64,000 nucleotides of DNA from Escherichia phage CLB_P2, in the sequence record OL770107; one strand, 5' to 3'. Positions 46,351 to 50,030 of the stretch are shown piece after piece (the first letter of the stretch is position 1; each line of letters opens with the position of its first letter). Both the position numbers and the translations under genes were made by a program. The notes under the pieces are model-generated. The model ran no database searches. It was not told the DNA's origin and saw only the letters and a list, made by a program, of their open reading frames with translations.

Positions 46351-46362
46351 TATTTATAAATA
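46351..46362. promoter_or_regulatory. divergent late promoters (palindromic TATTTATAAATA) for genes 51 and 26
   Basis: TATAAATA readable on both strands within 12 nt, centred between the divergent 51 and 26 starts. Confidence 0.5.
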
Positions 46363-46380: not shown

Positions 46381-47004
46381 ATGAATTATACTTTTGACGT
46401 AAAAATTAAAAACAAAACCATAAAATGCAGAGCATTTACCCTCAGAGAGTATAAGGACTTGCTCCAAGCTAAATTAGAAGGCAGAATAGAGTCCTTTATC
46501 AATGAACTCATTTCGAATTGCACAGATGCTCGTGATTTAAACAAGCAAGAATCTGAGCTCCTGGTGATAAACCTGTGGGCCCATTCATTAGCTGAAGTTA
46601 ATATAGAACGTGAGTGGGTTTGTAGTTGTGGTCGCTCACAGGTTGTTCCTATGACACTAACTCGCGCAACATTAGGTAAAGAGCCAGATGTTATTAAAGA
46701 CTTTGGCAACTTTAAAATCGTGTTCAGATATCCTAAACTCTTTGAAGATAAAAATAGAGCTATGATGGTCGCAGGGTGTATCGATTATATTTTAACTTCT
46801 GCAGGCGAAAAGCTTTTTCTTTCCGATTTAAGTGATGCGGAACTTGATGACCTTTATTCTGTGATAACAGAAAAAGATATAAAAGAAGTTTATGATGCTC
46901 TAGTTGCCCCTAAGCCTATTTTGGCCATACCTATTTCTTGTGAATGTGGTGAACATACCGTCCATGTTATTGAGGGACTTAAAGAGTTCTTTAAGGTGAT
47001 GTAA
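46381..47004 (+). CDS. 26: baseplate hub subunit gp26
   Basis: 207-aa ORF (T4 gp26 208 aa); AAGGAG RBS. Confidence 0.75.
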   Translation: MNYTFDVKIKNKTIKCRAFTLREYKDLLQAKLEGRIESFINELISNCTDARDLNKQESELLVINLWAHSLAEVNIEREWVCSCGRSQVVPMTLTRATLGKEPDVIKDFGNFKIVFRYPKLFEDKNRAMMVAGCIDYILTSAGEKLFLSDLSDAELDDLYSVITEKDIKEVYDALVAPKPILAIPISCECGEHTVHVIEGLKEFFKVM

Positions 47005-47393
47005 TGAATATCAATAAAATGTATTCAGATTTAGACCCTGAAATGAGGACGTCTTGGAATAGAGACGTCGCTAAAGCTACAGGGGCCCGTGCAGTAAAAA
47101 ACAGTTTGCTAGGCATTATTACCACCCGTAAGGGTTCTCGCCCTTTTATGCCTGAATTCGGTTGTGATATCAGTAATCAACTATTTGAGAATATTACTCC
47201 ATTAATCACGGATACCATTAAGCGTAATATAGTTTCCGCTGTGCGGAACTTCGAACCCAGAATTTCTGCTCTTGCCGTAGGCGTTACCCCTGTTTATGAT
47301 GACAACTCTATTATAGTAACCGTCCAGTTTAGTATTGTTGATGACCCGGATACATTAGAGCAAATTAGAATCCAGCTCTCACAGAGTGGTTAA
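47004..47393 (+). CDS. 25: baseplate wedge subunit gp25
   Basis: 129-aa ORF (T4 gp25 132 aa); ATGA-coupled to gene 26. Confidence 0.8.
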   Translation: MNINKMYSDLDPEMRTSWNRDVAKATGARAVKNSLLGIITTRKGSRPFMPEFGCDISNQLFENITPLITDTIKRNIVSAVRNFEPRISALAVGVTPVYDDNSIIVTVQFSIVDDPDTLEQIRIQLSQSG

Positions 47394-47394
47394 T

Positions 47395-47420
47395 TGCTGT
47401 TCAAATGAATAGTGTATAAT
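47395..47420 (+). promoter_or_regulatory. candidate MotA-box middle promoter for uvsY
   Basis: TTGCTGT then 15 nt then TATAAT about 30 nt upstream of uvsY. Confidence 0.35.
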
Positions 47421-47451: not shown

Positions 47452-47886
47452 ATGAGTAAAGAGATTGAATATAAATTGGAATCATTCCAAGATGCATTAG
47501 ATGAAGATTTAAAAATTGATGGGACTCGTTTACAGTATGAAGTACAGAACAACGTTTTGCTGCACAGCAAATGGCTAAGGCTGTATACGAATTGTAAGAA
47601 AGAGATAATGCGATTAGAAATCCAGAAAAAGACCTCTCTCAAGAAGAGATTAGATTTCTACACGGGACGTGGAGAGCCTGGTGATGAGGTTTGTATGGAC
47701 CAGTATGAGAAGTCAGAATTAAAGACTGTAATGGCCGCAGATTCTAGCGTGATTAAAATCGATACATCAATTCAATATTGGGCTTTATTACAGGACTTTT
47801 GTAGTTCGGCACTTGATGCCATTAAGGCGCGTGGGTTTAACCTTAAGACCATGCATGAGATGAGACAATTTGAGGCAGGTAAATAA
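47452..47886 (+). CDS. uvsY: recombination mediator UvsY
   Basis: About 144 aa from ATG at 47452; blocks LQYE-QNNV-L-SKWL, YEKSE-KTV-AADSSV-K-DTS-QYW and C-terminus FEAGK as in T4 UvsY. Confidence 0.85.
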   Translation: MSKEIEYKLESFQDALDEDLKIDGTRLQYEVQNNVLLHSKWLRLYTNCKKEIMRLEIQKKTSLKKRLDFYTGRGEPGDEVCMDQYEKSELKTVMAADSSVIKIDTSIQYWALLQDFCSSALDAIKARGFNLKTMHEMRQFEAGK

Positions 47887-47996
47887 TGAAAAATATTAGT
47901 GAGATTCTTGATGAGATGGTTGTTTCTGCTAACAGAATAACCGAAATTGTTAACGAATTGAAAGCAAAAGCCGCAGCAATGAAGGCTAATAAATAG
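47886..47996 (+). CDS. mini-ORF (36 aa)
   Basis: ATG overlaps the uvsY stop; T4 has small ORFs in this position; below the ORF-track cutoff. Confidence 0.3.
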   Translation: MKNISEILDEMVVSANRITEIVNELKAKAAAMKANK

Positions 47997-48024
47997 ATAT
48001 GTAAGATAAACTAAGGAGACAATC

Positions 48025-48192
48025 ATGTCAGATAAGATTTGCGTTGTCTGTAAAACTCCAATCGATGCTGCATTGGTTGTTGAAACAGAAAAAGGTCCGG
48101 TTCATCCGGGTCCATGTTATAATTACGTTCAAAGCATGCCTGTTACGGAAAACACTGAAGAACAGCTGAACGAAACCCAATTATTACTTTAG
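48025..48192 (+). CDS. mini-ORF (55 aa) with CxxC...C motif
   Basis: AAGGAG RBS; MSDKICVVCKTPID...PGPCYNY; ends at the bidirectional terminator. Confidence 0.35.
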   Translation: MSDKICVVCKTPIDAALVVETEKGPVHPGPCYNYVQSMPVTENTEEQLNETQLLL

Positions 48193-48222
48193 TCTAGTGT
48201 GTATAGCCATTTTATGGTTATT

Positions 48223-48254
48223 GGCCCTTCCGAAAGGTTGGGCCCTTTTTGTTT
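48223..48254. terminator. bidirectional terminator
   Basis: GGCCCTTCC-GAAA-GGTTGGGCC flanked by T-runs on both strands. Confidence 0.5.
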
Positions 48255-48482
48255 TTAGAACTCTTCTTGCTCTTCGTCATCCATGGATTCTAATTCAGCT
48301 CGTTTACCTGCTAGGGCATCACGAACACTGATATCATCCGAATCTCGAAGTTCAGCTTCTTTACTACGAGTTTTGTAATACTTCTCCAATTCCTTCAAAC
48401 CGTCCATGGTTTGACAAGAACTAATTTTAGACATGAAGCTCTCGATAGAGGCTTCATAGATAACTTCTTTAAAGGACTTCAT
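48255..48482 (-). CDS. UvsW.1-like small acidic protein
   Basis: 75-aa ORF immediately downstream of, and start-overlapping, the uvsW helicase gene. Confidence 0.5.
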   Translation of the reverse strand: MKSFKEVIYEASIESFMSKISSCQTMDGLKELEKYYKTRSKEAELRDSDDISVRDALAGKRAELESMDDEEQEEF

Positions 48483-49975
48483 AAATCCACCTGTTTCATT
48501 ACGTAATTAAATTTCTCGTCAGCATAACGTTGAATACGTTCTAAGGCATGTTTTAATGCATAATTCAAATGAACATATTTCTTTTTAGCATTTGCTGATT
48601 TAGGCTTAACGCCCATGTCGTCTATAATGTCCCAAACTTGTGCTGTTGATTTAGAAGCATGTTTACGGAGCACACGACCTATTGTCTGGAGTACAATGAT
48701 TTTGGATTTTACCGGATGCGCAAATACTACATGGTGAAGGTTCTTAACGGAAATACCGGTAGAGAACACACCGTAACTTGCCACAACAATAATACCCTTA
48801 CCATTTTCCGCCATTACTTTAAGAGCATTACGAGTTTCTGTATTAACTTCACCTGATACGTAATAAACTTCTTTATGTTGCTCTTTAACCATTTCAAAAA
48901 GAGTTTTACCGTGCTCGATGTTTTTAAACATCAGGAATACGTTCTCTTCTTTCTTAGCGAGTTTAACAGCTAAATTAGCAACCCATTTATTACGACGGGT
49001 AGCCTTAGTAATGACTTTAATTTCTGATTGGTAATCTTTACCTTTCATCTTAACAGTGAATTCATCTGGATAACGAAGGAAAATACTGTTTATTTTTAAA
49101 TCAGTGACCTGTCCTTCTTCCATTAACTGTGAAGTGGATACTGGCTTAAACACATCACCAAACAAACCCATATATTGCATTAAATTGGCTTTACCGTCTT
49201 TTAAAGAACCGGACAAACCGAATTTAAACATACAATTGGTAAGGCCTTCGATGATGGTAGAAATTGATTTACCTGTTGCCAAATGGCATTCGTCGTTCAT
49301 AAACATACCAAACTGAGCAAACCATTCTTTAGGTTGTTTAATAGCCGTTTGATAAGTTGAAACATAAATCATTGCATCGGAATCACGAGCAGTACCTGAA
49401 CGAATACCAAGCATAGCAGCTTTAGGGAACAAACGATAATCAATGAAGTCATTAATCATCTGGTCGACAAGTGCAGTAGTAGGAACTAAGATAAGAATTT
49501 TACCTTCATAGTTCTCAACGTAATATCGACTCAGGAGCGCCTGAATCAATGATTTACCTGCAGATGTAGGTAAATTCAGAATTGCACGACGTTTTGTCAG
49601 ACCGTTGTATACGGCTTCATTCTGATACCAATGTGGCTCAATCTTGGTAGAACCTGAATAAATCTCTTGTGAAGCTACCCATGAGTCAAAATCTTCACGT
49701 GAAATATCTTCTTGTTCAAGAATTCGTGGGTCAATCCAAAGAGAGTATTCAAACTGGTCAGCGAATTTTTTAATTTGTGGGACTAGACCATACGGAAGTT
49801 TACGGTTATAATCTAGAAGACGAATTCTCCCATCCCATTGCCCGTAACGGTATTTAGGGTTAAATTTATATCCATCAGCTTCAAAGCTGAAATAGTCTCT
49901 GAGTTCGTAGAAGGTGGATTCATCACACTCAACACGAACATGACTAAAATTATCAAAATGTACTTGAATTTGCAT
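48479..49975 (-). CDS. uvsW: UvsW DNA/RNA helicase
   Basis: 498-aa ORF; Walker A LPTSAGKS, Walker B DECH; N-terminus MQIQVHFDNFSHVRVECDESTFYELRDYFSFEADGYKFNP as in T4 UvsW. Confidence 0.85.
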   Translation of the reverse strand: MQIQVHFDNFSHVRVECDESTFYELRDYFSFEADGYKFNPKYRYGQWDGRIRLLDYNRKLPYGLVPQIKKFADQFEYSLWIDPRILEQEDISREDFDSWVASQEIYSGSTKIEPHWYQNEAVYNGLTKRRAILNLPTSAGKSLIQALLSRYYVENYEGKILILVPTTALVDQMINDFIDYRLFPKAAMLGIRSGTARDSDAMIYVSTYQTAIKQPKEWFAQFGMFMNDECHLATGKSISTIIEGLTNCMFKFGLSGSLKDGKANLMQYMGLFGDVFKPVSTSQLMEEGQVTDLKINSIFLRYPDEFTVKMKGKDYQSEIKVITKATRRNKWVANLAVKLAKKEENVFLMFKNIEHGKTLFEMVKEQHKEVYYVSGEVNTETRNALKVMAENGKGIIVVASYGVFSTGISVKNLHHVVFAHPVKSKIIVLQTIGRVLRKHASKSTAQVWDIIDDMGVKPKSANAKKKYVHLNYALKHALERIQRYADEKFNYVMKQVDL

Positions 49976-49988
49976 GTCTAATTCTCAG

Positions 49989-50010
49989 TTATAAATATAA
50001 TTATATTTAT
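49989..50010. promoter_or_regulatory. divergent late promoters for uvsW and the inh-like gene
   Basis: Plus-strand TATAAATA at about 49989-49996 and minus-strand TATAAATA at about 50003-50010. Confidence 0.45.
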
Positions 50011-50030
50011 ACACCAACAAGAGACTAATT

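Follow-up and report, generated by a model that had tools for sequence, protein, structure and literature searches.

A predicted zinc-site protein of the UvsY.-2 family and a probable microprotein gene downstream of uvsY in Escherichia phage CLB_P2

Two small genes downstream of uvsY

We analyzed a stretch of 64,000 nucleotides (nt) from Escherichia phage CLB_P2 (sequence record OL770107), hereafter the window, and concentrate here on the interval that follows uvsY. Two small open reading frames (ORFs) lie there on the + strand: ORF36, of 36 amino acids (aa), at 47886..47996, and ORF55, of 55 aa, at 48025..48192. We are highly confident that ORF55 is the orthologue of T4 uvsY.-2, with a zinc-site architecture, and ORF36 is probably a real but dispensable microprotein gene. 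The local gene order is gp51 (- strand), gp26 and gp25 (47004-47393), uvsY, ORF36, ORF55, a hairpin with a T-run, uvsW.1 (-) and uvsW (-), and the same order around uvsY.-2 is seen in JS98, VR5, T4, and ECD7. The window is 100% identical to Dhakavirus CLBP2 (OZ035781.1, an unannotated record) over 901 tested bases and 94-98% identical to JS98-like phages; judged by its sequence, the source is a JS98-like T4-type phage.

A first-pass annotation of this DNA had placed two small ORFs at a position where T4 also has small ORFs, and T4 does carry uvsY.-1 and uvsY.-2 there; it had not recognized ORF55 as the uvsY.-2 orthologue or as a DUF2685 protein. On re-reading, all of its statements about the sequence proved correct, the polarity of the terminator excepted.

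ORF55 begins at ATG 48025 and ends at TAG 48190-48192. It matches the Pfam family PF10886 (DUF2685) with an E-value of 2.5e-29, residues 3-55 aligning to profile positions 1-55, and because its score is 101.7 bits against a cutoff of 25, it lies far beyond a chance ORF. It also matches phrog_1043 (E 8e-30). The protein is identical to the annotated UvsY.-2 of VR5 and dhabil, and T4 UvsY.-2 shares 85% identity with it over the 40 residues aligned by BLAST. The features that define DUF2685 are all present: the profile match, the C-x2-C...H-x3-C motif together with a C-terminal E-x-[QE]-L-L, and the position beside uvsY.

The family was found by tblastn in 1193 phage records, with hosts that range from Escherichia to Acinetobacter and Aeromonas, and a profile search of 1.84 billion representatives returned 68 clusters, nearly all of 50-67 aa. 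Three long proteins from the representative search (P0076, P0083, P0090) were rejected as remote homologues, being repeat or low-complexity artefacts (DUF11 and similar). No Pfam family besides DUF2685 matches ORF55, and when the family profile was searched against the sequences of the PDB, nothing credible came up; the top match (E 0.075) was a segment of formylmethanofuran dehydrogenase that lacks the ligands. Rfam, PADLOC, and NCBIfam returned nothing meaningful for ORF55, ORF36, or the region. ORF55 thus belongs to a catalogued family and its sequence is already deposited; the protein is already known and its novelty is low.

A predicted treble-clef zinc finger

The first-pass annotation had drawn attention to CVVC...PGPCYNY in ORF55, which reads C6-V-V-C9 and H27-P-G-P-C31-Y-N-Y, and had suggested metal binding from this cysteine pattern, to be checked by conservation across homologues. 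In an alignment of 64 diverse homologues with a mean column identity of 34%, the sole invariant residues are C6, C9, C31, and E42, so that the three cysteines hold throughout. Position 27 is a histidine in 62 homologues and a cysteine in the other two, with no other substitute. Exchange of His for Cys is typical of a metal ligand, and since the histidine is replaced solely by cysteine we predict that H27 is one. At the level of sequence the suggestion of metal binding is therefore well supported, and ORF55 most likely holds one Zn2+ via C6, C9, H27, and C31. These four positions, together with the C-terminal LNETQLLL, fall in the most conserved columns of the alignment, and K10, G24, and G29 are conserved in at least 95% of the homologues.

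AlphaFold models residues 1-40 of ORF55 with a predicted local confidence (pLDDT) of 82-90, and the tail with a much lower one (51-72). The models show a CxxC knuckle along with short strands; residues 19-26 form a beta-hairpin, and the H-x3-C pair stands at the start of a helix of residues 30-37. This is the order of a treble clef, in which a knuckle with two ligands is followed by a beta-hairpin and by a helix whose first turn carries the other two, and it was matched in both AlphaFold models. The best structural neighbours of the ORF55 model are all treble-clef zinc fingers, namely LIM halves, eL24, PKC C1, FYVE, YacG, and CsfB. The top Foldseek matches were LIM domains, at scores that are not statistically significant and without sequence homology, and the viral structure library BFVD yielded only uncharacterized family members and generic zinc fingers. 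The finger, at about residues 1-38, is most likely a single treble clef resembling half a LIM domain, as far as the predicted models go.

Three other assignments were considered and rejected. ORF55 had earlier been labelled zinc-ribbon-like; a zinc ribbon has two knuckles on beta-hairpins and a three-stranded sheet, and in the predicted structure there is a single CxxC knuckle, the second ligand pair, H27 and C31, being placed at the N-terminus of helix 30-37. A LIM domain consists of two contiguous fingers (C2HC and C2C[CHD]) in about 55 residues; ORF55 has one finger with four candidate ligands and no Pfam LIM match. The YacG family of gyrase inhibitors is defined by a C4 finger and the YacG profile, and ORF55 has no sequence similarity to YacG.

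A conserved peptide on an acidic tail

The tail that follows the finger is acidic and predicted to be disordered, with a mean net charge of -3.9. It carries the invariant E42, in the context hydrophobic-x-E-S/N, and ends in a conserved motif, L-x-E-[TVI]-[QE]-L-L-hydrophobic, which in ORF55 is LNETQLLL. Docking motifs typically take this form, a conserved peptide at the end of an acidic, disordered tail, and the ORF55 peptide may be one; the arrangement speaks against nucleic-acid binding. The whole protein has a net charge of about -5, with three Lys and no Arg against eight Asp/Glu, and because of this charge nucleic-acid binding is unlikely and protein docking would be more plausible.

We also considered the final QLLL as a clamp-binding motif, either of the beta-clamp type (QLxLF) or of the type that binds T4 gp45. 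This was rejected: about one sixth of the homologues end in ...QLL, 19 of 64 have Glu in place of the Gln, and the motif is not followed by an aromatic residue.

Pairing of uvsY.-2 with uvsY

We collected 65 distinct uvsY.-2 loci from annotated phages, IMG/VR, and metagenome contigs. At 60 of them uvsY lies on the same strand within about 700 nt, directly adjacent in 27 cases and with one or two small ORFs inserted in the other 33. In seven of the most divergent homologues, all metagenomic, uvsY abuts the DUF2685 gene every time. The order is uvsY then DUF2685 in three of these and reversed in four, the junctions being overlaps of 1-4 nt or 1-nt gaps. The rest of the neighbourhood turns over entirely and may include uvsW, gp23, baseplate genes, a Dda-like helicase, or denV-like and Alt-like genes. 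A pair that survives both inversion and the loss of other synteny is the best evidence we have for a functional link of uvsY.-2 to the UvsY system, which these gene neighbourhoods would suggest. Records of cyanophages and Vibrio phages also include UvsY; their genera do not appear in the top ten listed for UvsY.-2, whose short query (55 aa) has the lower sensitivity.

A second recurrent neighbour of the DUF2685 gene is a YqeY-like ORF (PF09424, below the gathering score, E 9e-6 to 1.5e-3), which lies directly upstream and often overlaps it. Copies were seen in loci L007 (1026-1499), L009 (1016-1483), L066 (3564-4004), and, by sequence resemblance only, L054 (1031-1465); they come from the Aeromonas phages phiAS4 and avDM10, an IMG/VR contig, and a metagenome contig. 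The order in L066 is YqeY-like, DUF2685, UvsY.

ORF36 and a variable slot between uvsY and uvsY.-2

ORF36 (MKNISEILDEMVVSANRITEIVNELKAKAAAMKANK) runs from ATG 47886-47888 to TAG 47994-47996. Its overlap with the end of uvsY, already noted in the first-pass annotation, is a single base in a TAATG (uvsY TAA 47884-47886). AT-rich DNA can hold an ORF of 36 codons by chance, so the case for ORF36 as a gene is a comparative one. By tblastn it is present in 34 of 50,697 phage records, its carriers being CLBP2, Esco_phi_B-01, ABTNLsp5, and Gaprivervirus phages such as SP18, VR5, VR20, VR26, and MN01, and a scan of IMG/VR with a degenerate DNA pattern found it only in three known VR phages. It has no family match in Pfam, PHROG, or NCBIfam.

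ORF36 might not be functional at all: it could be a frame left over from cassette exchange, with its conservation due to recent ancestry or to constraints on the RNA. Besides its narrow distribution and the lack of a family, this would fit the many phages in which the slot holds nothing and the disruption of the frame in VR5 (a frameshift within an A-run) and in CJ20 (CGA to TGA, a nonsense codon). In addition, the last residues, NK and the stop, are dictated by a promoter element, and one antisense frame has a similar synonymous fraction (10 of 23). Against this, the ratio of nonsynonymous to synonymous substitution rates (dN/dS) of ORF36 lies at 0.10-0.25, with dS reaching about 1.4, and equals that of its neighbour uvsY.-2, a bona fide gene, when identical pairs of genomes are compared; the variable sites of ORF36 are distributed 11/4/16 over the three codon positions. 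Of 23 differences from SP18, 12 are synonymous in frame, and the two other sense frames give 5 and 4 (binomial P about 6e-4 against an expectation of 20%). The ATG abuts an upstream stop in three genomic contexts (TAATG after uvsY, ATGA after uvsY, and TAA-ATG after uvsY.-1), and hydrophobic residues keep a clean a/d heptad (I4, L8, M11, A15, I18, V22, L25, A29, M32), the pattern of an amphipathic helix. The antisense frame itself is broken in the closest relative. We therefore consider a non-functional ORF36 unlikely, and hold with fair confidence that it is a real gene that can be dispensed with. It would be a lineage-restricted accessory gene coding for a single amphipathic helix and translationally coupled to the gene upstream, apparently under purifying selection where intact and yet dispensable.

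The antisense frame in question is an 84-aa ORF (window 47772-48026, - strand) that spans ORF36 and reaches into the end of uvsY on one side and the start of uvsY.-2 on the other. In CJ20 a coding sequence (CDS) has been annotated in the equivalent frame, and in ABTNLsp5, the closest relative, that frame is interrupted after six codons; on this comparison it is most likely spurious. ORF36 may thus serve as a warning for annotation, being unannotated or inconsistently annotated across genomes, with the antisense frame annotated instead in one of them.

The first-pass annotation had implied that ORF36 is the small T4 ORF of this position. It is unrelated to T4 UvsY.-1 (phrog_1541), with no BLASTP alignment at E <= 100 and no PHROG match, and the two occur together in SP18, where they lie side by side, and in MN01; ORF36 follows uvsY.-1 in SP18, MN01, and VR26. 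Nor could it be aligned with the ORF of 32-35 aa found at this place in JS98-type phages.

The junction between uvsY and uvsY.-2 (window 47886-48024, and its equivalent in loci L001-L059) is a hot spot of insertion and replacement with at least six unrelated contents: nothing, uvsY.-1, ORF36, a 32-35-aa basic ORF, a 222-aa ORF, and other ORFs. Some loci have no gap at all, the genes overlapping by 4 nt, and the longest gap is 707 nt. An ending of ...NK and a stop is common among the inserted ORFs, because they run into a conserved late-promoter-like element, [T/A]ATAAATAG. We propose that unrelated cassettes may be exchanged here between the conserved uvsY stop and the conserved block of late promoter and ribosome-binding site (RBS), and ORF36 would be an example of a microprotein cassette in such a recombination hot spot.

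The 222-aa ORF (MCYQTLVYSPNGTRRYFGKHSSDKI...) was seen between uvsY and uvsY.-2 in two Dhakavirus contigs (L011 804-1472, and L013 at the same position); it has no Pfam match and may be a mobile or homing-type gene. An IMG/VR T4-like contig (L021) has an extra 30-aa ORF (MTNYKEVFRLLAEMEACLKRVQEMRFKMGL) between uvsY.-1 and uvsY.-2, 121-29 nt upstream of the latter, which looks like another helical microprotein cassette at the same spot.

Expression signals and neighbouring genes

The RBS of ORF55, given as AAGGAG in the first-pass annotation, is read from the sequence as TAAGGAG at 48012..48018 (+), 6 nt before the ATG, and the block GGAGACAATCATG is conserved across loci. Upstream of it lies a late-promoter-like element, AATAAATA, at 47988..47995 (+), which includes the first two bases of the ORF36 stop and matches T4 TATAAATA at seven of eight positions. 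The consensus of T4 late promoters is TATAAATA, spanning -13 to -6, and T4 relatives often have A or T at -13 (PMC1524935). As a sequence AATAAATA agrees with the definition of a T4-type late promoter; a single match of seven in eight is not significant alone, and we read it as a late promoter because it is conserved at the orthologous position. Among 55 distinct loci that position holds TATAAATA in 15 (T4 and 14 others), AATAAATA in 24, and TAAATA in nine, and the elements end 15-33 nt before the uvsY.-2 ATG. AATAAATA would thus act as a late promoter for uvsY.-2. Elsewhere, the window contains 13 TATAAATA sites where 6.5 are expected, with perfect copies back to back on opposite strands at 46351-46362 (the divergent junction of gp51 and gp26) and at 49990-50011 (just beyond the uvsW start).

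Before uvsY there is a middle-promoter-like element at 47391..47420 (+), consisting of the MotA-box-like TAATTGCTGTTCA (47391-47403) and TATAAT (47415-47420). It aligns with the corresponding region of T4 (ATAATGCTTCA ... TATAAT), which we take to be a middle promoter, and of SP18 (TAATGCTTTA ... TATAAT), and by this likeness it would be a middle promoter in this phage as well.

Downstream of ORF55 is an intrinsic terminator of the uvsY operon at 48223..48256 (+), with the hairpin GGCCCUUCCGAAAGGUUGGGCC at 48223-48244 and a T-run at 48246-48256 that overlaps the uvsW.1 stop codon on the opposite strand. The 73-nt terminator region folds as RNA at -21 kcal/mol (z = -2.8). A small AU-rich hairpin precedes it at 48203..48221 (+, from the RNA fold), and a similar one recurs in related loci. 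A simple terminator scan detected nothing here, because the stem has a 2x2 internal loop, and the terminator was recovered by RNA folding and a comparative scan. Hairpin and T-run are kept in 40 of 45 distinct loci, where the stems vary and their pairing is maintained (GGCCC/GGGCC, GCCCC/GGGGC, GGCTCTCC/GGAGAGCC, GGCCAGC/GCTGGCC). The 55-aa ORF had been said to end at a bidirectional terminator. In fact it ends 30 nt before the hairpin, which is followed by TTTTTGTTTTT on the + strand and by AAUAACCAUAAAAUGG on the - strand, so that the T-run is on the + strand only; a T-run on the - strand too is seen in three of the 45 loci, and the window is not among them. The convergent junction thus has an intrinsic terminator for the + strand, and by the canonical definition it is not bidirectional.

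The recombination mediator gene uvsY itself (144 aa, Pfam UvsY E 6e-54) occupies 47452..47886 (+), and its CDS is likewise 435 nt in the annotations of JS98, VR5, and ABTNLsp5. A mechanical list of ORFs places its start at ATG 47419 (155 aa); the annotated, conserved start is ATG 47452 (MSKEIEY...), preceded by AGGAAAC, and it is probably the true one, the longer form not being used. On the other side, the convergent gene uvsW.1 (75 aa, 48255..48482, -) is assigned by Pfam UvsW-1 (E 1.9e-24) and synteny, and its start overlaps by 4 nt the end of uvsW (48479-49975, -). In Shigella phage SP18 (L056 1793-2392) an annotated homing endonuclease gene lies directly after uvsW.1, between uvsW.1 and uvsW.

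A possible partner of the UvsY machinery

Read as a whole, the interval would be the distal end of the uvsY transcription unit, running from a middle-type promoter through uvsY, ORF36, AATAAATA, and uvsY.-2 to a + strand terminator that faces uvsW.1 and uvsW. The product of uvsY.-2 would probably be made by read-through of the uvsY middle transcript and then again from its own late promoter. It may be a small protein-docking adaptor or modulator of the UvsY recombination-mediator machinery and not a DNA binder, its zinc module giving one contact and its C-terminal peptide a second. As a package, the uvsY unit, a zinc-site UvsY.-2 as docking partner of UvsY, and an accessory ORF36 are our best explanation, which we put forward tentatively and at slightly less than an even chance. 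The partnership of UvsY.-2 with the UvsY machinery, judged for itself on the conserved gene pairing, is possible but not something we would call probable. A stricter form of it, in which UvsY.-2 is a dedicated zinc-finger cofactor that docks on UvsY, UvsX, or gp32 by its C-terminal E-x-Q-L-L and tunes presynaptic filament assembly or recombination-dependent replication, is rather unlikely.

Published data on T4 bear on these ideas. The T4 UvsY.-2 protein (Q00778) was detected by mass spectrometry in a time-resolved proteome and transcriptome, where its RNA is classed as middle and the protein as late (PMC9697503, supplementary files 4 and 6), in keeping with a middle transcript and an additional late promoter. 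In the CRISPRi-ART screen of T4 (2025), uvsY.-2 scored 1.12 ('Semi-Fit'), uvsY.-1 0.05 ('Not Fit'), uvsY 0.09, and uvsW -0.10, and the fitness effect of uvsY.-2 was validated with a single guide and complemented. Few T4 genes of entirely unknown function have a fitness effect that is confirmed, and uvsY.-2 is one of them.

Several observations weigh against a partnership with UvsY. No uvsY is nearby in five of the 65 loci, and the Acj61-type Acinetobacter phages and some Aeromonas phages have no uvsY at the uvsY.-2 locus. Moreover, uvsY itself was not fit in CRISPRi-ART, which argues against a role purely through UvsY; the same screen also misses several known essential genes.

Among other explanations, the one that survives best is that UvsY.-2 targets a host protein as a zinc-finger-plus-tail inhibitor or modulator, and that its adjacency to uvsY reflects shared transcription only. 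Small proteins of this design are known: YacG of E. coli has a zinc finger and a C-terminal tail that plugs GyrB, and CsfB/Gin of B. subtilis is a zinc-binding anti-sigma factor. ORF55 has no sequence similarity to YacG or CsfB, it matches no Pfam family besides DUF2685, and PADLOC gave no match. Because its core is invariant from Escherichia to Acinetobacter and Aeromonas hosts, the target would have to be highly conserved, and the pairing with uvsY, which survives inversion of the order and complete turnover of the neighbours, goes beyond operon inertia. We regard a host target as unlikely on balance.

UvsY.-2 could instead be a late accessory of morphogenesis or DNA packaging, with a link to the adjacent baseplate genes 25, 26, and 51 and with its own late promoter as the main source of expression. 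In 39 of 55 distinct loci the ATG is indeed preceded, at 15-33 nt, by a late-promoter-like [T/A]ATAAATA, the protein kinetics of T4 UvsY.-2 are late, and in most Tevenvirinae the gene is downstream of gp25 and gp26. However, the distant homologues keep uvsY and not the baseplate genes, their neighbours including Dda-like helicase, denV-like, gp23, and Alt-like genes, and uvsY is itself a DNA-metabolism gene that is also expressed late, which makes this explanation improbable. A nucleic-acid-binding zinc-finger regulator of transcription or translation, the literal sense of the 'regulator' suggested in the first-pass annotation, is very improbable: many treble-clef fingers, including GATA and ribosomal eL24, do bind nucleic acids and K10 beside the knuckle is nearly invariant, but the acidic protein and tail carry no conserved basic surface patch, and no DNA-binding family matches UvsY.-2.

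A docking partner of the UvsY machinery hence stays our preferred reading, and the evidence on uvsY.-2 would point to the T4 recombination-mediator system, the textbook model for mediators of the Rad52/BRCA2 type. If UvsY.-2 were indeed its dedicated cofactor, the classical T4 mediator would be a two-component system, missed over sixty years of T4 genetics through the small size of the gene. The analysis in any case provides a testable model for uvsY.-2: four ligands of one metal site, an invariant Glu and a C-terminal peptide, and a pair relation with uvsY.

Comparison with known systems

The closest counterpart is T4 UvsY.-2 (NP_049797, UniProt Q00778; DUF2685/PHROG 1043), which like ORF55 has 55 aa, the C2HC motif, and the C-terminal LNETQLLL, and whose gene is likewise downstream of uvsY, convergent with uvsW, and equipped with the same RBS block and terminator. 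It differs from ORF55 by ten substitutions, counted between both sequences. The late-promoter element before the gene is AATAAATA in this phage and TATAAATA in T4, and the gene upstream is ORF36 here and uvsY.-1 in T4. T4 UvsY.-1 (74 aa) resembles ORF36 in that it occupies the slot directly after uvsY and is start/stop-coupled to it, whereas the two sequences are unrelated.

In its finger, ORF55 (C-x2-C-x17-H-x3-C) has a ligand order and spacing similar to those of the first finger of LIM domains (C2HC; C-x2-C-x16-23-H-x2-C), and its model runs, like LIM and treble-clef fingers, from a knuckle through a beta-hairpin to a helix that begins at the last two ligands. It differs from LIM in having one finger instead of two contiguous ones and a last spacing of H-x3-C instead of H-x2-C. 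The gyrase inhibitor YacG of E. coli is also a small zinc finger with a C-terminal tail, but it uses four Cys where ORF55 is C2HC, and the tail motifs are different.

Finally, T4-type genomes are known for modular cassette exchange in hyperplastic regions, where short conserved flanks, regulatory sequence among them, enclose small ORFs that are replaced by unrelated ones. The slot after uvsY resembles these exchanges in the swapping of small ORFs, its flanks being the uvsY stop and the late-promoter/RBS block. It differs in the nature of the regulatory flank, which is a late-promoter-like element here and an early-promoter stem-loop in the T4 cassette exchanges.

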